The notes beneath the pieces are model-generated. The model made no database searches and was not told the origin of the DNA. It was given only the letters and a program-made list of their open reading frames with translations. The translations under genes and the position numbers were made by a program. DNA of 9,562 bases, taken from positions 35,411-44,972 of the forward strand of contig MESD01000042.1 in the NCBI GenBank assembly GCA_001770815.1, read 5' to 3'. Positions 1,413 through 9,562 of this stretch are shown piece by piece. This stretch comes from Burkholderiales bacterium RIFCSPHIGHO2_12_FULL_69_20 (GTDB lineage: Bacteria > Pseudomonadota > Gammaproteobacteria > Burkholderiales > Burkholderiaceae_C). Positions within the stretch are counted from its first letter, which is position 1. Every line of letters begins with the position of its first letter.

Positions 1413-1679
1413 ATGCTATTTGACCTTGGGGCAATAGTTGCCACCCCTAGCTGCCTGCGGCATTGCTTGAAGAGCAATGTTGATCCAATGCATCTCATTC
1501 GGCGCCATGCAGCTGGTGACTGGGGAAGTGTTGACTCTGACGATGTAAAGGCAAACGATCATGCAATCAAGCACGGCCTACGTGTCTTCAGCTCTTACAT
1601 CGTTGGTGATGACAAGGTCTGGTGCATCACGGAGGCAGATAGAAGTTCAACATGCCTCTTGCTTCCACAAGAATACTAG
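1413..1679 (+). CDS. Small conserved plasmid/ICE-associated protein of unknown function (GDWG...ITEADRS...LLPxEY family)
   Basis: 88-aa ORF containing RHAAGDWGSVDSDD...KHGLRVFSSY...VWCITEADRSSTCLLLPQEY. From memory, this motif string marks a roughly 90-aa family common on plasmids and integrative elements, sometimes mislabelled as type I restriction subunit M. The Shine-Dalgarno sequence is weak (GAG/GAAG upstream). Confidence 0.65.
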   Translation: MLFDLGAIVATPSCLRHCLKSNVDPMHLIRRHAAGDWGSVDSDDVKANDHAIKHGLRVFSSYIVGDDKVWCITEADRSSTCLLLPQEY

Positions 1680-1791
1680 TGGATGCTTCCTTGCATTGCC
1701 CCGTCAATTCGATGGGTGATCAATCTCCGGTCGCTCTCCACTCAAGAAGATCACATACTAGCTCTACTGTGTTTAACAAAGGAGCTAGGAA

Positions 1792-2235
1792 ATGAGTGCA
1801 CTTTCGAAGCTGAAGCTTGTGAGCGTTCAAGCCGAACGCAAATCTCCGACCAATCTGCGTCGTAACAAGCTGACTGGGAAAATTGACCAACAAATCGCGA
1901 GCGCAAAAGCCGCGATTGAAGGTCGCAGCTATGCCGCAAGTCGCACGAAATTCGTCAAGGACGGCGAAACTGGCGAGCGAAAGCAGGTTGAGTCGTCGAC
2001 CCGAGTCAAGCAGTGGTGGTGGAAGTCACCGACCGGGAAGGTCGTGCTTGCTTTGCGATATGGCGCCAAGCCGCTAGAAATCGCCAAGGGCAAGAACGCC
2101 ATCGAGGTTGGCGACATGGACGGCCTGGTTGCCGCACTAGAGGCGGTCAAGGAAGCCGTGCAGGCCGGCGAGCTTGACGCTCAGATCGAGCAGGCTAGCG
2201 GTGCACTGCGCGCTGGCTTCGCCAAGAAGAAGTGA
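1792..2235 (+). CDS. Conserved hypothetical genomic-island protein (resembles the family I recall as DUF6641)
   Basis: 147-aa ORF with a good SD (AAGGAG, 7 nt upstream). The motifs RRNKL..., ...KQWWW...GKVVLALRYGAKPLEIAKGKNAIEV..., and AVQAGELDAQIEQ match my recollection of this island-borne family. Confidence 0.7.
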   Translation: MSALSKLKLVSVQAERKSPTNLRRNKLTGKIDQQIASAKAAIEGRSYAASRTKFVKDGETGERKQVESSTRVKQWWWKSPTGKVVLALRYGAKPLEIAKGKNAIEVGDMDGLVAALEAVKEAVQAGELDAQIEQASGALRAGFAKKK

Positions 2236-2246
2236 GGGGCGGCGCA

Positions 2247-2411
2247 ATGAACACGTACCAGGCCTCGGTGCGCGTAAAGAGCGCCAGCGGCAGTGGCACG
2301 ATGGTGGTGTGGGCGCAAGTTCAAGCCAGCAACCCCATCGCAGCCCGGCAACAGCTTGAGGCTCAGTACGGGCGTGGCAACGTCGTCGGATTGCCTTGTC
2401 TTGCAGGCTGA
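2247..2411 (+). CDS. Small 54-aa protein, unknown function (below the ORF-track size cut-off)
   Basis: ATG at 2247 lies 12 nt after the upstream stop, with a GAGGGG SD about 8 nt upstream. Translation: MNTYQASVRVKSASGSGTMVVWAQVQASNPIAARQQLEAQYGRGNVVGLPCLAG. The tight spacing suggests co-transcription with 1792-2235. Confidence 0.5.
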   Translation: MNTYQASVRVKSASGSGTMVVWAQVQASNPIAARQQLEAQYGRGNVVGLPCLAG

Positions 2412-2430
2412 CCCGACGTCCTGCCACAAG

Positions 2431-3027
2431 CTAGGCTGGTGTGCGTGCCCGTCTGGCGAAGCCGATTGCCAGTAACCCCGCCGTAAGTAGCGCGAAAGTA
2501 GATGGTTCTGGTACTGCCTGCGCCTGGCCATACGCTGTGATCTGAACCTGGCCCGAAAGAGTCGCGCTGGGGCCTCCGGAACTGAAGGATGCCCCGCCAT
2601 TGCCCGAGAGCTTCGTGTCAGACTTGCCCAGCAACAGCCGGTTAAGGAACGTCCATGCCCCATCAACCGGCGCGTTGTTCTCCGTGACCATCTGCGATGC
2701 GCCCGGAGTCGGTTCTGTGACGCATGCGATGCTTAGAGGGTTGCAGAAGTGCAAGCCTACGCTGCTGCCGAGATAGGTGCTGACGAAGGTGACGGACTGT
2801 GGTGGGCCAAAGTTGGATGTGAATCCTATGAATTCGACCAAGTATGAATCCACCGTTGCTGAGCCCACGTCGAGACCGCCTGCGTCCCAGGAGCCGGCGA
2901 TGGTGTTTGGACTTCCCGAGAAACTGAAGTTGATGGTGGTCGAGTCAAGCGCTACGGCGGCGGCGTGCGTGACGTTGGTCATGGAAACGGCGACCATTGC
3001 AACTACCCCTACAACTCGGCTTTTCAT
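2431..3027 (-). CDS. PEP-CTERM sorting-domain secreted protein
   Basis: The C-terminus ...AVPEPSTFALLTAGLLAIGFARRARTPA is a canonical PEP-CTERM signal: VPEP, a hydrophobic helix, then an Arg cluster. I place the start at the internal ATG at 3027 (MKSRVVGVVAMVAVSMTNVTHAAA, signal-peptide-like, AAGGGA SD upstream) rather than the ORF-track start at 3171. Confidence 0.8.
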   Translation of the reverse strand: MKSRVVGVVAMVAVSMTNVTHAAAVALDSTTINFSFSGSPNTIAGSWDAGGLDVGSATVDSYLVEFIGFTSNFGPPQSVTFVSTYLGSSVGLHFCNPLSIACVTEPTPGASQMVTENNAPVDGAWTFLNRLLLGKSDTKLSGNGGASFSSGGPSATLSGQVQITAYGQAQAVPEPSTFALLTAGLLAIGFARRARTPA

Positions 3028-3266
3028 CGTTCGTCCCTTTAGGGCCTGTGCAGATTTGACTGCATAAATGTGCTCCGCTCTTGTTTGCGTTGCACGCGCA
3101 CCATGCGAGTGGAGCCCGCAACCGTCCTTAGGCTGACCTCCATGCGCGTCGCACTCATGGTACCGCTCCATAGTGCAACACCACCATCATTGACTTGGGG
3201 GATACCGAAGCCCGGCATTCGCGTCGTCGGCGCTGATAAATATGACGAACACCATGGGGACCAAAC

Positions 3267-3476
3267 ATGCGACTAGAAGAGATCCAACCGAAAGACGCAG
3301 CCGAGCAACGCGTCGACAGGCTGAAGGACAACGCGACAGCTGCGAGCGACAGGGCTAAGAAGCTCAAGGCGCAGGCTAACGCTGAAGCGGAGCGACTGCG
3401 TGTAACCCGGTCGCAAGAGCGGCCCGAGAGAACGACGAAGTCTGGGGCAGCCGCAATGATCAAGCCGCACTCCTAG
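3267..3476 (+). CDS. Small charged, probably helical protein, unknown function
   Basis: 69-aa ORF rich in K/E/A/R (…RVDRLKDNATAASDRAKKLKAQANAEAERLRV…) with a GGGGA SD-like element upstream. An antisense ORF (3273-3548) overlaps it and looks less protein-like. Confidence 0.4.
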   Translation: MRLEEIQPKDAAEQRVDRLKDNATAASDRAKKLKAQANAEAERLRVTRSQERPERTTKSGAAAMIKPHS

Positions 3477-3685
3477 TCGGTCGCCAGAAAGCGTCGAGAG
3501 AGGTCTGCACAAAAAGGAGGCACTCGGAGTCGTCCAAGAAAACATCAATTTAGCGAAGTTGCACGATCATATTGATCTATCGCGTTGGAGGTGCATTCGA
3601 TTATGGGGAATAGGGCGTGAAAATAAGTGATTGGTCGTCAACGCGGACGAAGATAAGCGAATTCGCATCAATGCCATTTCACCCT

Positions 3686-3716
3686 TGACAAACAACAATG
3701 CCCCTTTCGGGGCATT
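3686..3716 (-). terminator. Rho-independent terminator ending the 333-aa/139-aa operon
   Basis: Perfect 8-bp stem AATGCCCC/GGGGCATT (3697-3716) with a 4-nt loop (GAAA on the minus strand). On the minus strand it is followed by TTGTTGTTTGT. It lies about 25 nt after the stop of 3742-4161. Confidence 0.65.
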
Positions 3717-3741
3717 ATTTGGCAACAACACTGAGCAAACA

Positions 3742-4161
3742 TTACGATTCTTTGAACTCATTGAAGTCAAACTTGAGTGCATCCGCACATCGAATGTTGC
3801 GCATCACGTGCAGATTGTTTTCCTCCGTTTGCCCTGCTACTTCAAGCAGCCTAAAGCGACATTCATCCACATTGTCTTGCAGCAGCTCGACACCGTAGAT
3901 GGAAGCAAGCGGATTCTTGTGCCTGAGAGATGCCTTGATATATAGAACTGGCACGAAAACTTTTCCATTTCCTGCCGCCGGGGCAGAGTAGGTCTTACCT
4001 TCTTCCCAGGCTGTGTCCGGAAGTTGCGAAAGTAACTCCAACACTAGCTTGGTCGGAGTGAAGATTTCGCCATACTCCCTTGCACGCTCCTTGCTGCGCA
4101 CAAGGAAGTAGTCCATTGCTTCGTCTTCGCACAGCTTTTGCAACTCGGGCGAGAAGTTCAT
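3742..4161 (-). CDS. Methyltransferase-like SAM-binding module lacking the catalytic motif (gamma-class N6-adenine MTase N-terminal half)
   Basis: 139 aa. G31-EIFTP-TKLVLELL resembles motif X (FxTP). Y58-SAPAAGNGKVFV resembles a degenerate motif I ((D/E)PxxGxG). I88-YGVELLQDNV resembles motif III. NIRCADALKFDF resembles the segment just before motif IV. The ORF stops at ...NEFKES, so no (N/D)PP(Y/F/W) is present. Its start overlaps the upstream stop (ATGA at 4158-4161). Confidence 0.65.
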   Translation of the reverse strand: MNFSPELQKLCEDEAMDYFLVRSKERAREYGEIFTPTKLVLELLSQLPDTAWEEGKTYSAPAAGNGKVFVPVLYIKASLRHKNPLASIYGVELLQDNVDECRFRLLEVAGQTEENNLHVMRNIRCADALKFDFNEFKES

Positions 4162-5159
4162 TCTGGTTTTTTCTCACGCTGGGCATCGAACTCCTTCTTA
4201 ATGCGCATCGCACGCGCAAGACCGTCCTCGTGAATTTGTGTCTGCTTGGGAGTTATTACGGCCGGTGCGCCTCTGTCAGAGTGGACTAAGTCATTTGCGC
4301 GTTCCAAAGCAGGAATATCCTCGCCCGTCATAAGATACGGCATCACTTCCGCATCGTTCCTTGCAACCGCTTCGTGGTAGTCGCTCATATGCAGAACAGG
4401 ACTTCCCACGACGCCCGCAGTAAGTATTATTTGCGATGTAGTAACGACTACCTTTAGAAAGCTAAACCTCCCCTCATTTATCACAACGGTAATCTTTACT
4501 GATGCGCCCTCCTTGCAATACTTCATTAGCTGCAACAAGCGCGGCGCATCATACGAATACTGCGGCAATATCGCCCTATCACAATCGTCTGACAATGTGA
4601 ATCTGCACATTACCCGATCGTCAGGGCCGATTGCTGCACGAACCCGCATCCTTTTGTCAGTATAGATAACAAACTGATCATCATACTGAAACTGCTCGGC
4701 TTTCGACCACCAACCCCGCAATAGATCAGTGCCCTCGGCGGTAGCTTCGAAGGTTGCTTTGTCTTCAAATCCGTGTTTCCGCGATAGCAACTCATATGCT
4801 TTGTAGCTACCCATCGTTGCTTTAGATAGCAGGGGCACTGAATGCGAACTGTCATTGCTGCCTGTTATCAGGATTGACTTGGCTCCATTTCTTGCCCTGA
4901 ACATCGCCGCAGTGCAAGTTTGATAATGCGGATGCTTAAGGATTGCTTTGATTAGATCGAGCGTGCTTATCCCAACATCCTCGTCCAGCCCTTCTACCTT
5001 TTCGAGAAAGCCGCTATGTGCTCTGAAGATTTGAAACTCTGGATTCTCATAGCGGGAACTGCTAAAGCTGGCGCCGTGCTTTCCCAAGAAGAGAGGCTTC
5101 ATCTCTTCAAATGGTTGAACATACTGCACCAATAGCCGCAAGCAATCGATTAGTTGCAC
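4158..5159 (-). CDS. Unknown 333-aa protein with no family I can recognise
   Basis: Long ORF with a GTG start at 5159 and a GGAG SD 7 nt upstream. The 4-nt overlap with the downstream gene indicates translational coupling. It is among the lowest-GC parts of the window (about 40-48% on hand-counted lines). An alternative ATG at 5102 (MKPLFLG...) has a poorer SD. Confidence 0.7.
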   Translation of the reverse strand: MQLIDCLRLLVQYVQPFEEMKPLFLGKHGASFSSSRYENPEFQIFRAHSGFLEKVEGLDEDVGISTLDLIKAILKHPHYQTCTAAMFRARNGAKSILITGSNDSSHSVPLLSKATMGSYKAYELLSRKHGFEDKATFEATAEGTDLLRGWWSKAEQFQYDDQFVIYTDKRMRVRAAIGPDDRVMCRFTLSDDCDRAILPQYSYDAPRLLQLMKYCKEGASVKITVVINEGRFSFLKVVVTTSQIILTAGVVGSPVLHMSDYHEAVARNDAEVMPYLMTGEDIPALERANDLVHSDRGAPAVITPKQTQIHEDGLARAMRIKKEFDAQREKKPE

Positions 5160-5169
5160 TTCATTTCTC

Positions 5170-5196
5170 CAAAAAAATAGGCACCGAAGTGCCTAT
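5170..5196 (-). terminator. Strong rho-independent terminator after the 311-aa gene
   Basis: On the minus strand: ATAGGCAC-TTCG-GTGCCTAT (8-bp stem, UUCG tetraloop) followed by a 6-7 T run. It lies about 20 nt after the TAA at 5218-5220. The T run abuts the GGAG SD of the next gene. Confidence 0.75.
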
Positions 5197-5217: not shown

Positions 5218-6153
5218 TTACTTCTTCTTGGCTGCGTTGAGTGCTTTAGCAGCGATGTCAAAGTTGCTCTTGGCGAGCTTGACAACATGTTCCAGTGCGG
5301 AATGATCGTCCTTGGGTCTTGCAGCTTTGGCCGTCACAAGTTGTTCTTGTGCGACTGCCACAGCCATTTCAGCATTGACCTTTGCGGTTGTCAGCGCCAG
5401 CCGTTGGATCTTGATCTTCGGATCAACAGTAACCTTGGCTGCTTTCTCAGCTGCATTCTTGTTCCGTAAGTAGTCCACCAGTAGCTTGTCGCGCTGATCG
5501 TCGGAGAGAGGAATCTCCTTCAGCGTTGCTTCGTCGCCCTCGCCACGGATGGCAATCAGAATGCGATATTCTTGCTTGCCAATCCATTCAAACTCATCGA
5601 CTTCGGCAAGCGGCTCGCCGCTGTTTTCAAGCATTGAGACTGCATCGGACGGCTTGAGAGCAACGGTGGTAGATGCGCCCTTGGCGCGCGTGGGATCCTT
5701 AAACCCCGACAGAGCACCATCCTGAGCGTGCACAGCAGCAACGAACTCACCGACAGTCGTAGGCCGGTTAGGAAGCGCATATGCACCACGCACAGCCCTG
5801 GCCCAAATGCTGACTTGCTTGTCGTCAGCGTGGAAGACATAGCGAACGAGCGCATTGCTCAACTTTGCCGTCTTGGACATTTCCACTGGCGTCTGCAGTT
5901 CCTTCAGCTTTGCCAGAAGCTGGTCGCGGAACGAGCTCTCCTTGTCTTGCTGCATCACCGAGTAGTAGATCGCGTAGACCTCACCGATCAGTGAATACAA
6001 ACGATCACGGCCGCCGATTTCGATCTGTCTGTAATAGTCGCCAGCATCGGCGCGAAGCTTGACAACTTTGTCCATATGCTTCGACAGCTTGACCACCTTC
6101 GGCGACGCTGCATTTGCAACTGCATCGCTTTCGACTGCATTGTTTGCACCCAT
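5218..6153 (-). CDS. Unknown 311-aa protein with an Ala/Lys-rich helical C-terminus
   Basis: Long ORF with ATG at 6153 and an AAGGG SD about 8 nt upstream. No recognisable catalytic motif. The C-terminal 80 aa or so (…AEKAAKVTVDPKIKIQRLALTTAKVNAEMAVAVAQEQLVTAKAA…AAKALNAAKKK) looks coiled-coil-like. Confidence 0.7.
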   Translation of the reverse strand: MGANNAVESDAVANAASPKVVKLSKHMDKVVKLRADAGDYYRQIEIGGRDRLYSLIGEVYAIYYSVMQQDKESSFRDQLLAKLKELQTPVEMSKTAKLSNALVRYVFHADDKQVSIWARAVRGAYALPNRPTTVGEFVAAVHAQDGALSGFKDPTRAKGASTTVALKPSDAVSMLENSGEPLAEVDEFEWIGKQEYRILIAIRGEGDEATLKEIPLSDDQRDKLLVDYLRNKNAAEKAAKVTVDPKIKIQRLALTTAKVNAEMAVAVAQEQLVTAKAARPKDDHSALEHVVKLAKSNFDIAAKALNAAKKK

Positions 6154-6303: not shown

Positions 6304-7368
6304 TCAATCTGCATCAATGAGTCTTGCTGCCTTCGACATCACTTCACTTTTGATGACATGAGCGTAGACCATCGTGCTTTGGATTGACTTGTGACCCAAG
6401 TATTCCTTCACTTCCAGTAGCCCCATTCCAGCCTGCAGCAGGTGAACCGCCCTGGTGTGTCTAAGCGTATGTAACGACACCGAGCCTTGATCTTCATTCA
6501 ATGCAGCACGCTTGACAGCAGCAGCAACCCACTTGTTATTTGACTTGCCAACCTTCGATCCAAACACATAGTCACCAAACTCCATTGCGCGACGACGAGT
6601 AAAGATTTCACGCATCGTGTTGGTCATACCAATGGTGCCATCAATGCTGCCCTTGTTGCGCTTCATAAAGACTGTACCTGCATTGAAGTCAACTTGGTTC
6701 CACTTCATCTGTGAAATCTCTGTTAGTCGACCAGCACTGTCCAACAGCAACCTAACAAGGTCAAAGTTCTCCTGCTTCTGAGCAATGGTGACAACATCAA
6801 CACCAAGTGCAGGATCAAGTGCAGCAAGGAAACGAGCAAGTTCCTCTTTTGTAAGCCAACGAACCTTCCCACTGTCGTGCTTGATGGGAGTCATTTTCTT
6901 ACGGGTGGTATAGCCTTTTTCAGTGCAATACTTGAGCATTGCATTGAAGTAGGTGACTGATACCTTGAGTGTGCTTTCCTTGTAGCCTTCCTCACGCTTC
7001 TTGAAGACTACATCCTCCAACTGATGGTCGGTAATCTTGTCCAGCGTAAGGTTAGGCAGCATCTTGAAGTATCGAATGTGAATCTCGCAGTTCTGAGCAC
7101 TTGTCAGGTGCTTGCGAGACTTCACAAACAGATCGATTGCGTCATGCAGCTTGATTGGCTTTTTGTTGCCAAGCACGACTTCTTCGATTAGCTCGGCCTT
7201 CTTCTTCGCCAAGATGCGCTCAGCGTCACGACGAATGCCTGTGTGAGTGCTCTCCGCAATCATCACACCTTTGATCTGTGTTCGAATATGCCAAGTCTGG
7301 CCGCGCAGGATCAAGCCACCGTAGTTGGTTGGATGTCGTTCTGCCACTTGTTTCTCCTTCAGCGTCAT
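6304..7368 (-). CDS. int: Tyrosine recombinase / phage-type integrase
   Basis: The C-terminal catalytic signature …SLHTLRHTRAVHLLQAGMGLLEVKEYLGHKSIQSTMVYAHV… carries H-x-x-R, LGH and the nucleophile Tyr. A box-I-like AGRLTEISQMKW is also present. The ATG at 7368 lacks an SD. The in-frame GTG at 7347 follows AAGGAG by 6 nt and may be the true start. Confidence 0.93.
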   Translation of the reverse strand: MTLKEKQVAERHPTNYGGLILRGQTWHIRTQIKGVMIAESTHTGIRRDAERILAKKKAELIEEVVLGNKKPIKLHDAIDLFVKSRKHLTSAQNCEIHIRYFKMLPNLTLDKITDHQLEDVVFKKREEGYKESTLKVSVTYFNAMLKYCTEKGYTTRKKMTPIKHDSGKVRWLTKEELARFLAALDPALGVDVVTIAQKQENFDLVRLLLDSAGRLTEISQMKWNQVDFNAGTVFMKRNKGSIDGTIGMTNTMREIFTRRRAMEFGDYVFGSKVGKSNNKWVAAAVKRAALNEDQGSVSLHTLRHTRAVHLLQAGMGLLEVKEYLGHKSIQSTMVYAHVIKSEVMSKAARLIDAD

Positions 7369-7469
7369 ATCGGTAGCGTTGCGGTTGGACTAAAGCTGTA
7401 CATAAACACAGTGCTGTATAACCATACAAAAATGTTTTCCGTATGTCCCTGTGCAGCTTTTGTCACAGT

Positions 7470-7518
7470 CCCCGCTTTTATTGTTGCCCCGCTGTAATAC
7501 TTTTACGACCGCTGTTTT
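7470..7518. promoter_or_regulatory. Three direct CCGCT(G/T)T repeats upstream of int; candidate arm-type or accessory-factor binding sites
   Basis: CCCCGCTTTTA (7470-7480), CCCCGCTGTAA (7487-7497) and ACCGCTGTTTT (7508-7518), spaced 17 and 20 bp (cores at 7472, 7489, 7509). They lie between the int start and the att/tRNA fragment. The function is an inference. Confidence 0.3.
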
Positions 7519-7573
7519 GCTGGAAAAACGACCAATCTTGTGACACCAAAAGTTGGGTGTTGCCGCAACGAGA

Positions 7574-7618
7574 CAAGCACTCGCGTCAAGCGTTTTTTGC
7601 GCGATGCGTAAGTGCTTG
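7574..7618. repeat. Inverted repeat / hairpin next to the att region
   Basis: CAAGCACT (7574-7581) and AGTGCTTG (7611-7618) are perfect 8-bp inverted repeats. An inner TCGCG/CGCGA pairing and a T6 run lie between them. Confidence 0.5.
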
Positions 7619-7672
7619 CTGTGTATAGATTTTTTGTTCCGCGCAGGTTTATTCCCTGCTCCAAAGCAATGC

Positions 7673-7734
7673 AATGGATAGAACGGACCCCTCCTAAGGG
7701 TCAGATGTAGGTTCGATTCCTACTGGCCGCACCA
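7673..7734 (+). tRNA. 3' fragment of a tRNA-Arg(CCU) gene (D-loop to CCA); probable att repeat at the island junction, not an intact tRNA
   Basis: Anticodon arm GACCC-CTCCTAA-GGGTC gives anticodon CCT. T arm is GTAGG-TTCGATT-CCTAC. The acceptor 3' strand is TGGCCGC followed by A and CCA, ending at 7734. The required 5' acceptor strand GCGGCCA and the D-stem 5' strand are absent upstream (GCTCCAA pairs at only 4 of 7 positions; ATGC does not pair with GAAC). Confidence 0.7.
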
Positions 7735-7784
7735 GGCGCATCGGCCCTGTCGACCCTTTTGGCGCGCCGCTGCGGCGGCCGGTG

Positions 7785-8621
7785 TCAATAACCCGACAGG
7801 TCGGGCGCCGCAAAGTCCGACGGCCGGCCGTTGGCGTCGGGGTGACCGGTGTCGGTCAGGCGCCGCTGGGCGATGCGCTGCTTGTCGAGCATGCGGCTGA
7901 TGACGGCCGCTTCTTCACGCAACGAGAACGCAAACGGGTAGAGCGACCGCTCGCGCGAAGCCCGCTCGGGCTGCCCGCCGAATTCACCGATCTGCGCCTT
8001 GATGTACTCGAACTCCACACCCAGCAACACCGCCGGTGCATTGACCGACTTGTTCATCCGCTCGCCGGCCAGCACCTGGCAGCCCAGCATGCGCTCGTAG
8101 TAGCGCTCATGGCGCGGATTGACCTCGATGAGCAGCATGTCGTAGCCGCGAACCCGGTGCGCGACGATGTAGGCCACGTGGAACAACGCGGCCAGCACGC
8201 GCTTGGTGCCGACCGACGGATCGATGGCCAGCTTGGTGAACTCGCAGATCTTGCGGCCCTGGCGGCGCAACTCGCCCACTTCGGGACCGAAGGCGTCGTC
8301 CGCGCTCAGCTTGCTGAGCCCGTCGAACGACACGGTGATGGTGCCGATGGTGACGTCGGCTTCCACCGCCGTGAGGGTGAACTTGTGCACCGATTGGTCG
8401 GTCGGCAAGGTCACCTGCCCGTAGCCGCGCCAGGCGTAGCGGTCCTTGAGCAGGCTGTTGACGCGGCTGCGCCGGTCTTCGGACTCGGCCGTCTTGATCT
8501 TGAAACGACGCTGGCCGGCGGGCCCGTCGGGCAGCAGATCGATGCGGGGGTCTTGCACCAGCATGTGCCCGCCTGTGCCGCGCGCCAGCACCGATGCCGC
8601 GAAGATCGTGCTCGATTTCAT
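7785..8621 (-). CDS. GNAT-fold / FeeM-like N-acyltransferase (tentative)
   Basis: High-GC ORF. FKIKTAESEDRRSRVNSLLKDRYAWRGYG and ...ICEFTKLAIDP... match my recollection of N-acyl amino acid synthase (FeeM-type) proteins of the acyl-CoA N-acyltransferase fold. The start is ambiguous: ATG at 8621 (MKSST...) or 8564 (MLVQD...). The ORF-track start at 8729 runs into lower-GC sequence that looks intergenic. Confidence 0.55.
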   Translation of the reverse strand: MKSSTIFAASVLARGTGGHMLVQDPRIDLLPDGPAGQRRFKIKTAESEDRRSRVNSLLKDRYAWRGYGQVTLPTDQSVHKFTLTAVEADVTIGTITVSFDGLSKLSADDAFGPEVGELRRQGRKICEFTKLAIDPSVGTKRVLAALFHVAYIVAHRVRGYDMLLIEVNPRHERYYERMLGCQVLAGERMNKSVNAPAVLLGVEFEYIKAQIGEFGGQPERASRERSLYPFAFSLREEAAVISRMLDKQRIAQRRLTDTGHPDANGRPSDFAAPDLSGY

Positions 8622-8819
8622 GGGGACACCGGGTAAAGGGAAAAGCTGACCACTTCGACGCGAGACGACATTGAAACTGATGATACCCACCAAGGTGTGG
8701 CGCGAGCATGACGTCCGACCCGGGATCACAGGCTATTTCCGGCAACAAGCCGCTGCAAGCGCCTTTCGATGGGAAATACCCCTTGAATGAGGGGGCGAGC
8801 CATCCATGCGCCATGCCTG

Positions 8820-9562
8820 TCAGGCCGTTGCAGTGTGCGCCGGGATCATGGCTTCGAGCATGCTCAGGCAGTCGGCCTGGTGTAACGGTTTGTCGTGGCG
8901 GATTCTCAGCATGCGCGGAAACCGCAGCGCGATGCCGCTCTTGTGGCGCGGGCTGTGGGCGATGCCCTCGAAGCCCAGTTCGAAGACCAGCGTGGGCCGC
9001 AGGCTGCGCACCGGGCCGAACTTCTCCAGCGTGTTCGCGCGGATCACCGCGTCGACGGCCTTGAACTCGGCATCGGTCAGGCCCGAGTAGGCCTTGGCGA
9101 AGGTGACCAGCTGCAGCGTGCCGGGCTGGGCGGGCTCTCGCCGGGTGATGGCCTGCACCACCGCATCGGCTTCGTCGGCATCGGCGGGCGGGCGGCTCCA
9201 CACCGCAAAGGTGTAGTCGGTGTACAGGCCGGCACGGCGGCCATGGCCGGCCTGGGCATAGACGAGCACCGCATCCACGGTGCAGGGCTCGATCTTCCAC
9301 TTCCACCACACACCATCGGCCTTGGTGCGGCCGGTGCCGTAGGCCGAATCGCGCTGCTTGAGCATCAGGCCCTCGACCCCAAGCTCACGGCTGCGTCGGC
9401 GCTGTGCGGCCAGTTCGACCCAGCTGTCGGCCTGCAGCGCCGGCGACAGCCGCAACGGCCCGGCGGCCAGCAGTTGCTCGAGCCGGTGGCGACGCTGGTG
9501 CTGGGGCCATGTGCGCTGGTCCTGGCCGTTCACTTCCAGCAGGTCGTAAGCGATGAACTGCA
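8820..9562 (-). CDS. ATP-dependent DNA ligase, C-terminal part (5' end outside the window)
   Basis: …EGLMLKQRDSAYGTGRTKADGVWWKWKIEP…VFELGFEGIAHSPRHKSGIALRFPRMLRIRHDKP… matches the adenylation/OB-fold motifs of bacterial ATP-dependent ligases of the ligase-associated DNA damage response type. The frame stays open upstream of the track's start to the window edge (…QFIAYDLLEVNGQDQ…). Confidence 0.85.
   Translation of the reverse strand, partial: QFIAYDLLEVNGQDQRTWPQHQRRHRLEQLLAAGPLRLSPALQADSWVELAAQRRRSRELGVEGLMLKQRDSAYGTGRTKADGVWWKWKIEPCTVDAVLVYAQAGHGRRAGLYTDYTFAVWSRPPADADEADAVVQAITRREPAQPGTLQLVTFAKAYSGLTDAEFKAVDAVIRANTLEKFGPVRSLRPTLVFELGFEGIAHSPRHKSGIALRFPRMLRIRHDKPLHQADCLSMLEAMIPAHTATA

Follow-up and report, generated by a model that had tools for sequence, protein, structure and literature searches.

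The cytosine methyltransferases M.AquI and M.EcoHK31I are split, heteromeric enzymes made from two polypeptides, and among the amino-methyltransferases there are permuted classes. Dnmt3L, METTL14 and MTA9 are derived from methyltransferases, have lost catalysis and/or cofactor binding, and are retained as binding partners of an active paralogue. Here we consider a gene for a protein of 139 amino acids (aa) in a stretch of 9,562 nucleotides (nt), hereafter the window, from contig MESD01000042.1 of Burkholderiales bacterium RIFCSPHIGHO2_12_FULL_69_20. Its motifs and predicted fold securely place the product as the S-adenosylmethionine (SAM)-binding region of a gamma-type N6-adenine DNA methyltransferase, which is here encoded on its own as a small protein. 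With about as much belief as doubt, we favour the view that it is an orphaned small subunit, which has lost its catalytic partner and persists by serving the co-translated 333-aa protein as a structural partner or adaptor.

We found neither a published description nor a biochemical study of the family of short front-half proteins to which it belongs. A two-subunit enzyme of Stx phages, M.ECPA8_3172P-PNB-2, has been described as a methyltransferase with an RNA-recognising subunit (bioRxiv 10.1101/2023.09.20.558713). It was considered as a relative and set aside, as it is absent among the phage matches of the 139-aa protein.

The 139-aa protein and its motifs

Motif conservation was read from the columns of 312 non-redundant family members, in which the cofactor-contacting columns are conserved at 93-100%. 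The gene, the motifs of its product and the signals at its two ends are as follows.

3742..4161, minus strand: 139-aa open reading frame (ORF), putative orphaned small subunit of a split Eco57I/N6_Mtase-type adenine methyltransferase, with motifs X, I, II and III only
4054..4071, minus strand: motif X, GEIFTP, residues 31-36 (family E 99%, F 93%, T 99%, P 81%), kept here
3955..3990, minus strand: motif I, YSAPAAGNGKVF, residues 58-69, eroded here, with both glycines (G64 and G66) kept
3886..3900, minus strand: motif II, IYGVE, residues 88-92, followed by the family-invariant QDN...R
3775..3798, minus strand: motif III, NIRCADAL, residues 122-129; the protein ends 10 residues past L129
4158..4161, minus strand: ATGA stop/start overlap, read from the sequence, joining the TGA of the 333-aa gene to the ATG of the 139-aa gene
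3694..3719, minus strand: terminator-like hairpin with an 11-bp stem, a GAAA loop and a U-rich tail, about 23 nt past the 139-aa stop

Conservation across the family is high around motif II (Y89 90%, G90 94%, D/E92 99%, D96 95%, N97 97%, R104 91%) and in motif III (N122 95%, I123 87%, D/N127 93%, L129 82%). An initial annotation of this DNA, made from the letters alone, had correctly recognised the EIFTP of motif X, motif I and the segment that precedes motif IV; the YGVE strand that it called motif III-like, however, is motif II in the standard numbering. In relatives that keep the canonical motif order (P0095, P0127 and P0140, found by phmmer), the catalytic NPPF or NPPY follows 16-40 residues past motif III.

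The similarity to methyltransferases is beyond chance in profile searches, and it stops before motif IV. Residues 17-105 match positions 11-97 of the 311 in the Pfam profile N6_Mtase (E 1.1e-4, 22.1 bits against a cut-off of 20.4), and residues 19-134 match MTase_II of PADLOC (E 2.3e-8). Among the PHROGs, the protein matches family 21201, annotated 'DNA methyltransferase' and 156 positions long (E 6.5e-14), as well as family 4376, of 134 positions (E 1.5e-7); a match to family 11371 is confined to the C-terminal 100 positions of that profile. An AlphaFold2 (AF2) model computed with 65 relatives reached a mean predicted local distance difference test (pLDDT) score of 95.1 and a predicted template-modelling (pTM) score of 0.89. 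It consists of N-terminal helices and exactly three strands (residues 58-60, 88-92 and 123-125), that is, half a Rossmann fold. The best matches of this model in the PDB, without exception N6-adenine DNA methyltransferases, are CamA, DrdV, M.BseCI, MmeI and HsdM (Foldseek probability about 1.0; template-modelling (TM) score by query 0.5-0.56).

Nothing of the other half was detected nearby. There is no remnant of motif IV, (N/D/S)PP(Y/F/W), in the window, whichever frame is read; nine catalytic halves used as tblastn queries gave E values of at least 0.2, and an unfiltered hidden Markov model (HMM) search for catalytic-half remnants over the whole window gave at least 0.6. This extends the earlier remark that no NPPY-like remnant lies downstream. 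A C-terminal half concealed downstream was also considered and rejected, there being no remnant and only about 265 nt of intergenic DNA between the stop codon and the next gene, which is convergent. Because the predicted product has no motif IV, no motifs V-VIII and no target-recognition domain, the 139-aa protein alone cannot catalyse methyl transfer. The initial annotation had likewise described a methyltransferase-like protein that ends just before the catalytic motif, and we reach the same reading.

The start codon of the 139-aa gene overlaps the stop codon of the 333-aa gene in the ATGA listed above (the initial annotation had called the start translationally coupled), and an identical 4-nt overlap joins a 333-like gene to the 139-aa gene in a sister island (L013). 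At the other end, the dedicated terminator that had been placed about 25 nt past the stop corresponds to the hairpin measured here, with a free energy of -22.2 kcal/mol and a z-score of -3.49; none of 200 shuffled sequences was as stable.

A family of front halves and their catalytic partners

Exhaustive phmmer searching of 1.84 billion representative proteins returned 1,239 clusters at E <= 1e-3, of which 218 were at E <= 1e-10. Among the best 150 relatives, 132 are no longer than 260 aa, with a median of 171 aa, and 15 are longer than 300 aa; the norm is a short protein, and the copy in the window is not an isolated truncation among full-length enzymes. A word-indexed search found no longer relatives, whereas exhaustive phmmer did recover fused forms, and a metagenome scan for near relatives found none above 48% identity. 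Five of the fused forms (P0031, P0032, P0042, P0045 and P0155) carry motif IV at the N-terminus, as NPPY or NPPF in four and as NVPW in P0155, then a region ending in a WTDxEL...LTxEE helix, and finally a module like the 139-aa protein at the C-terminus. With motif IV N-terminal and the module C-terminal, these are circularly permuted enzymes.

Where the module stands alone, a catalytic half is usually its neighbour. The gene for P0004 (58% identical) lies directly 3' of a gene for a 369-aa NPPY protein, with a 4-nt overlap; P0019 (48%) follows a 452-aa NPPY protein that is itself 3' of a helicase; and P0022 follows a 363-aa homologue carrying NPNY. P0004 and P0019 are the nearest relatives outside the islands, and each adjoins an NPPY gene. 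The same pairing occurs in the T4-like Klebsiella phage PKO111, as gp114 (NPPF) with gp115 (the module), and in cyanophage Bellamy, as gp86 with gp88. On a Sphingopyxis plasmid the order is an 'N-6 DNA methylase' of 208 aa, an 'Eco57I ... domain-containing protein' of 526 aa and a DEAD/DEAH helicase.

The generality of this arrangement was assessed in 160 loci, half from prokaryotic genomes (80) and half from viral contigs (80), with an HMM of the NPPY half built from 39 viral catalytic halves; a partner was scored when encoded on the same strand within 4 kb or when fused to the module. In 155 loci the module is an ORF of 105-270 aa and in the other five it is part of a fusion of 436-478 aa, and in none does NPPY come after the module. 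An NPPY-family partner or fusion is present at 139 of the 160 loci and at 91 of the 97 that are well flanked (3 kb or more on either side). The partner gene is immediately upstream in viral contigs; it is immediately downstream in bacterial genomes, where it encodes about 505 aa, and likewise on plasmids.

The partners are not all of one kind: some begin right at NPPY and are truly without a front half, and others retain their own. The bacterial partners of about 505 aa (4638-6173 of L044 and 57 similar loci, within L032-L111) have their own motif X and a variant motif I, DPACKSGVFL, which is 98% conserved and has lysine at the first glycine position. Since these partners retain a front half, the small subunit beside them is a paralogue of that half and not its replacement. 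The module is also fused to complete beta-class methylases of PF01555, at either end (P0043 and P0126), and, within the fusion set P0043, P0126, P0146, P0006 and P0009, to a Rep3_N-like initiator protein, a FitA-like ribbon-helix-helix domain and an SEC-C motif. Judged by these fusions and by the near-constant company of methyltransferases, the module behaves as an independent SAM-binding domain and not as a mere fragment.

This bears on the suggestion that the 139-aa protein might act as a sensor, an adaptor or a decoy. As a default for the family the suggestion does not hold, the short form being normally accompanied by an NPPY protein; it is relevant to the copy in the window because that copy has lost its partner. 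A practical consequence is that the label 'N-6 DNA methylase' on proteins of 130-260 aa should not be taken to denote an active methylase.

About one sixth of the short members (P0012, P0013, P0015-P0018, P0035, P0077, P0123, P0159 and others) end in a basic/acidic tail terminating in LF, IF or FF. Such tails (for example QQTLF and KAKSLF) resemble the clamp-binding peptides of polymerases and phage proteins. The resemblance is curious in view of the possibly clamp-like gene upstream in the window (see below); the 139-aa protein of the window is without such a tail.

An orphaned module with an eroded cofactor motif

No match to the NPPY-half HMM was found in the window, in a 20-kb locus around the island that carries the gene (L001) or in the sister island. 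A six-frame search of the 5.5-Mb assembly, which is 96.7% complete, gave a single match, a 577-aa protein on contig C16. Carrying motif X, motif I (EPSFGDGDF) and NPPY itself, it is a gamma-class methyltransferase in complete form. The other Eco57I/N6_Mtase matches in the genome are long ORFs with a motif I of their own. A partner-less state such as this is rare, occurring at 6 of the 97 well-flanked loci, and uncharacterised proteins encoded upstream at other partner-less loci gave no family matches.

The second peculiarity of this copy lies in motif I, which in active gamma-class enzymes is (D/E)PxxGxG followed by an aromatic or hydrophobic pair. The window reads APAAGNGKVF, in which the acidic residue is gone and N/Q-F-L has become K-V-F. 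Position by position, the family has a hydrophobic residue at 59, D/E at 60 (98%), N/Q at 67 (94%), F at 68 (86%) and L at 69 (89%), against S, A, K, V and F here. All other conserved family columns are intact. The degenerate APAAGNG had been pointed out in the initial annotation and is real, but it is no trait of the family: among the 312 members the window allele alone deviates at two or more of positions 60, 67 and 68, and the canonical motif is kept in six other partner-less loci and in the sister proteins P0002 and P0003 (77-80% identical). By Tajima relative-rate counts, 10-12 changes are unique to the window lineage and 1-5 to its sisters (p from 0.002 to 0.2, depending on the outgroup), and about half of the former fall in motif I. 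Over codons 67-69 (window 3955-3963), the exchange of Q-F-L for K-V-F agrees with the gain of one base and the loss of another seven bases further on, when set against the sister allele; seven of eight bases match with these gaps and five of nine without. A compensated +1/-1 frameshift would thus fit better than point substitutions, although we offer it as a suggestion only. Six independent metagenome assemblies contain the identical protein in the same gene neighbourhood, which rules out faulty assembly as the source of the allele. The loss of these residues predicts that the 139-aa protein probably binds SAM poorly, and we infer that it no longer takes part in methylation. As the degeneracy is unique to the window allele, it also argues against a role as SAM sensor for this copy.

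Evidence for selection comes from comparison with the sister island, where the order is the same (311-like, 333-like, 139-aa) and the catalytic partner is likewise absent. For the 139-aa gene, the rates of nonsynonymous (dN) and synonymous (dS) substitution between the two islands are 0.147 and 0.784, giving a ratio (omega) of 0.19, which is an average over two lineages and cannot show constraint on the window allele itself; the neighbouring genes range from 0.05 to 0.38. Because the sister island is orphaned too, purifying selection has acted in the partner-less state. The low omega, the length distribution of the relatives and the absence of any downstream remnant together agree with the earlier proposal of a maintained short protein rather than a fresh truncation.

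The gene stands in an island whose G+C content is 47-51%, against 60-70% in the flanks; a search of 36 further genomes of the genus did not recover the gene. Its cassette lies downstream of a tyrosine integrase gene and a gene for a 311-aa protein, so that the relevant neighbours, all on the same strand, are these.

4158..5159, minus strand: gene for the 333-aa protein, not a methyltransferase half; maybe PCNA/sliding-clamp-like over residues 1-257, with a helical tail
5218..6153, minus strand: gene for the 311-aa protein, between the integrase gene and the coupled pair; no family match
6304..7368, minus strand: gene for the tyrosine integrase (Pfam Phage_integrase, E 3.7e-24) of the low-GC island that carries the cassette

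Alignment shows both islands to be mosaic: window 1413-4166 and L013 1708-4461 are 87% identical in nucleotides, from 5 nt ahead of the 139-aa start through an 88-aa gene, and the identity of the 311-aa and 333-aa proteins to their counterparts is only 39% and 33%. Within the 87%-identity block, dS varies among genes from 0.075 to 2.3. No tRNA in the window was complete according to ARAGORN; a candidate 3' tRNA-Arg fragment at 7673-7734 (region 7400-7780), reported in an earlier note and situated at the jump in G+C content beside the integrase, would fit an att repeat. At the far end of the window, the 5'-truncated ORF 3-218 on the plus strand ends in a TWIGGSLGRQPPW-type segment that by eye resembles the C-terminal DNA-binding motif of H-NS, and it may be a xenogeneic-silencer-like island gene. 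In the high-GC flank there are genes for a FeeM-type N-acyl amino acid synthase (7785-8729, minus strand; Pfam E 5e-46) and for the C-terminal part of an ATP-dependent DNA ligase (8820-9560, minus strand), and in the larger locus L001 these are preceded by NUDIX, exo/endo/phosphatase and PLD-like genes.

The 333-aa protein is the putative new partner of the 139-aa protein. It had no match below E 5 to the NPPY-half HMM and no family in Pfam, NCBIfam, PHROGs or PADLOC; phages and plasmids searched by tblastn, and PDB sequences searched with a profile, yielded nothing, and the word-indexed search recovered the query alone. A single homologue turned up, P0170 of the sister island, with 31% identity by BLASTP and 33% by local alignment. 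Two ways of making it the missing half were tried and rejected. An NPEF at residues 39-42 might pass for a degenerate motif IV, but P0170 does not have it there and the NPPY-half HMM finds no match; and a divergent catalytic or recognition half is not indicated by BLASTP against the fused P0031 and P0032, which was not significant. An ESM Atlas model points over residues 1-257 to clusters of PCNA/gp45-type clamps (TM 0.53-0.59 by query and 0.70-0.76 by target; feature score 0.91), and the protein may have a PCNA/sliding-clamp-like fold, which we regard as a lead only. The fold of such clamps is a two-domain beta-alpha-beta-beta-beta repeat and assembles into a ring. Between the 311-aa and 333-aa genes there is a further terminator-like hairpin (5177-5196, minus strand; 8-bp stem, UUCG loop and T run), which abuts the ribosome-binding region of the 333-aa gene, so that expression of the 333/139 pair may depend on read-through or on an unrecognised promoter.

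How, then, could a half-enzyme persist without its other half? In the explanation we favour, the catalytic NPPY partner would have been lost from the integrase-borne island, and selection would have kept the module as a partner, no longer enzymatic, of the 333-aa protein translated along with it; in the window lineage, cofactor binding would then have become dispensable. The exposed face of the half-Rossmann fold, which would normally dock on the catalytic half, could have been reused as a protein-protein interface. A bolder form of this explanation, in which the module was exapted on the mobile island as a SAM-independent, non-catalytic adaptor docked on a PCNA-like ring encoded by the overlapping upstream gene, is in our estimation distinctly unlikely. 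If true, it would represent a bacterial counterpart of methyltransferase-derived regulators such as Dnmt3L and would link a clamp-like, DNA-bound platform to an island function, for which replication, maintenance and interference with incoming DNA are candidates. Several points weigh against persistence as an adaptor. The coupling of the two genes shows co-expression only and not direct interaction; the clamp-like fold comes from a single language-model structure of low confidence (pLDDT 0.55), and an AF2 model from two sequences, with P0170, reached a pLDDT of only 33.6. The genome assembly is short of complete, and an NPPF ORF on contig C115 (1-1950) runs off the contig start with its front half unassembled, which makes it the only putative catalytic half of the genome that could not be assessed for completeness. 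Finally, the erosion of motif I and the faster rate of its lineage fit early decay equally well.

Early decay is accordingly the main rival. The catalytic half would have been lost or recombined away, and the gene, now functionless, would hitch-hike in a conserved block at an early stage of pseudogenisation in which motif I happened to be hit first. That the only broken motif I of the family sits in a lineage with an excess of unique substitutions, that codons 67-69 look like a compensated frameshift, that the orphan state is so rare and that the island is mosaic, with the block of similarity starting exactly 5 nt before the start codon, all agree with such a remnant. Yet the frame is intact, omega lies within the range of the neighbouring genes, every other conserved column is kept and the same allele recurs in all six assemblies; moreover, the orphaned sister island retains a canonical motif I and the ATGA coupling, and the orphan state is thus old relative to a dS of 0.78. 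On balance we consider decay unlikely, albeit the strongest competitor to persistence as an adaptor, the averaged omega and the conserved coupling being the points that tell against it.

The two remaining alternatives retain a methyltransferase as the target of the module. It could still be a working subunit in trans, supplying the SAM-binding half to a catalytic half encoded by the host, by an unassembled part of the genome or by a helper phage. Two-part enzymes are what the family is made for, the module still has motifs X, II and III and both glycines of motif I, and an NPPF ORF is cut by the end of contig C115; on the other hand, nothing but a complete enzyme, furnished with a front half already, came out of the genome-wide search, the other Eco57I/N6_Mtase matches are long and have a motif I themselves, the loss of a 98%-conserved acidic residue and of N/Q-F-L speaks against efficient SAM binding, and the gene is coupled to a protein that is no methyltransferase. 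We hold this to be highly improbable. Least likely of all, in our view, is a decoy or inhibitor, in which the free module would bind catalytic halves or full-length Eco57I/Type ISP-like enzymes, belonging either to competitors or to the host, form dead complexes and so modulate restriction or methylation in favour of the island. The face that docks on NPPY halves is presumably kept in what is a confident model, a SAM-dead small subunit would be dominant-negative, the gene is on a mobile island, and partners in this family often belong to helicase-linked, restriction-like systems. The idea is, however, purely inferential; no known anti-restriction family was matched in the PHROG and PADLOC searches, the intact motif I of the sister allele means that the SAM-dead state is not an ancestral design, and the conserved coupling to the 333-aa protein is left unexplained.

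Phages, plasmids and defence-like operons are rich in adenine methyltransferases that are split or permuted. An orphan subunit that was selected without its partner and then lost its cofactor motif would amount to a natural experiment on the fate of a half-enzyme, and it would point to a possible route from enzyme subunit to adaptor or regulator, the module being paired here with a 333-aa protein whose sole homologue found is P0170.

Comparison with described methyltransferase systems

Compared with the gamma-class enzymes of the TaqI/Eco57I/N6_Mtase type (CamA, 7lt5/7rfn; M.BseCI, 7qw7; MmeI, 5hr4; DrdV, 7lo5; HsdM, 3lkd), the 139-aa protein has motifs X, I, II and III in the same order and similar in sequence, and its predicted helices and strands beta1-beta3 superpose on their N-terminal halves. 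Unlike them, it is without NPPY, motifs V-VIII, a target-recognition domain and the acidic residue of motif I. Much closer are the small subunits of split or permuted Eco57I-type enzymes (PHROG 21201 and 4376; gp115 of phage PKO111; Sphingopyxis WP_054590677), which belong to the same sequence family (phmmer to E 1e-34) and, at about 130-260 aa, are labelled 'N-6 DNA methylase' in RefSeq, with an 'Eco57I restriction-modification methylase domain-containing protein' encoded alongside. The window protein shares with these its length class, its end point after motif III and its tight coupling to an upstream gene; it differs in having no adjoining NPPY partner, an unrelated upstream gene and a uniquely eroded motif I. 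Some family members adjoin helicase-NPPY proteins of 1,100-1,330 aa or helicase genes, as in Type ISP-like restriction-modification systems (relatives of LlaGI/LlaBIII), whereas the window has no helicase, nuclease or NPPY protein.

The resemblance to more distant systems is one of principle. M.AquI, M.EcoHK31I and the permuted amino-methyltransferases illustrate, too, that one methyltransferase fold can be divided into two genes or circularly permuted, but the two split enzymes are of the C5 class and both pieces are present and needed, whereas here one piece remains. Dnmt3L, METTL14 and MTA9 have an active paralogue as partner, whereas none is evident here, and there is no sequence relationship to them beyond the class I fold. 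Taken together, we argue that the window holds an orphan of a large family of split methyltransferases, with a neighbour that is no methyltransferase and a damaged cofactor pocket, and that it is very unlikely to be an enzyme.

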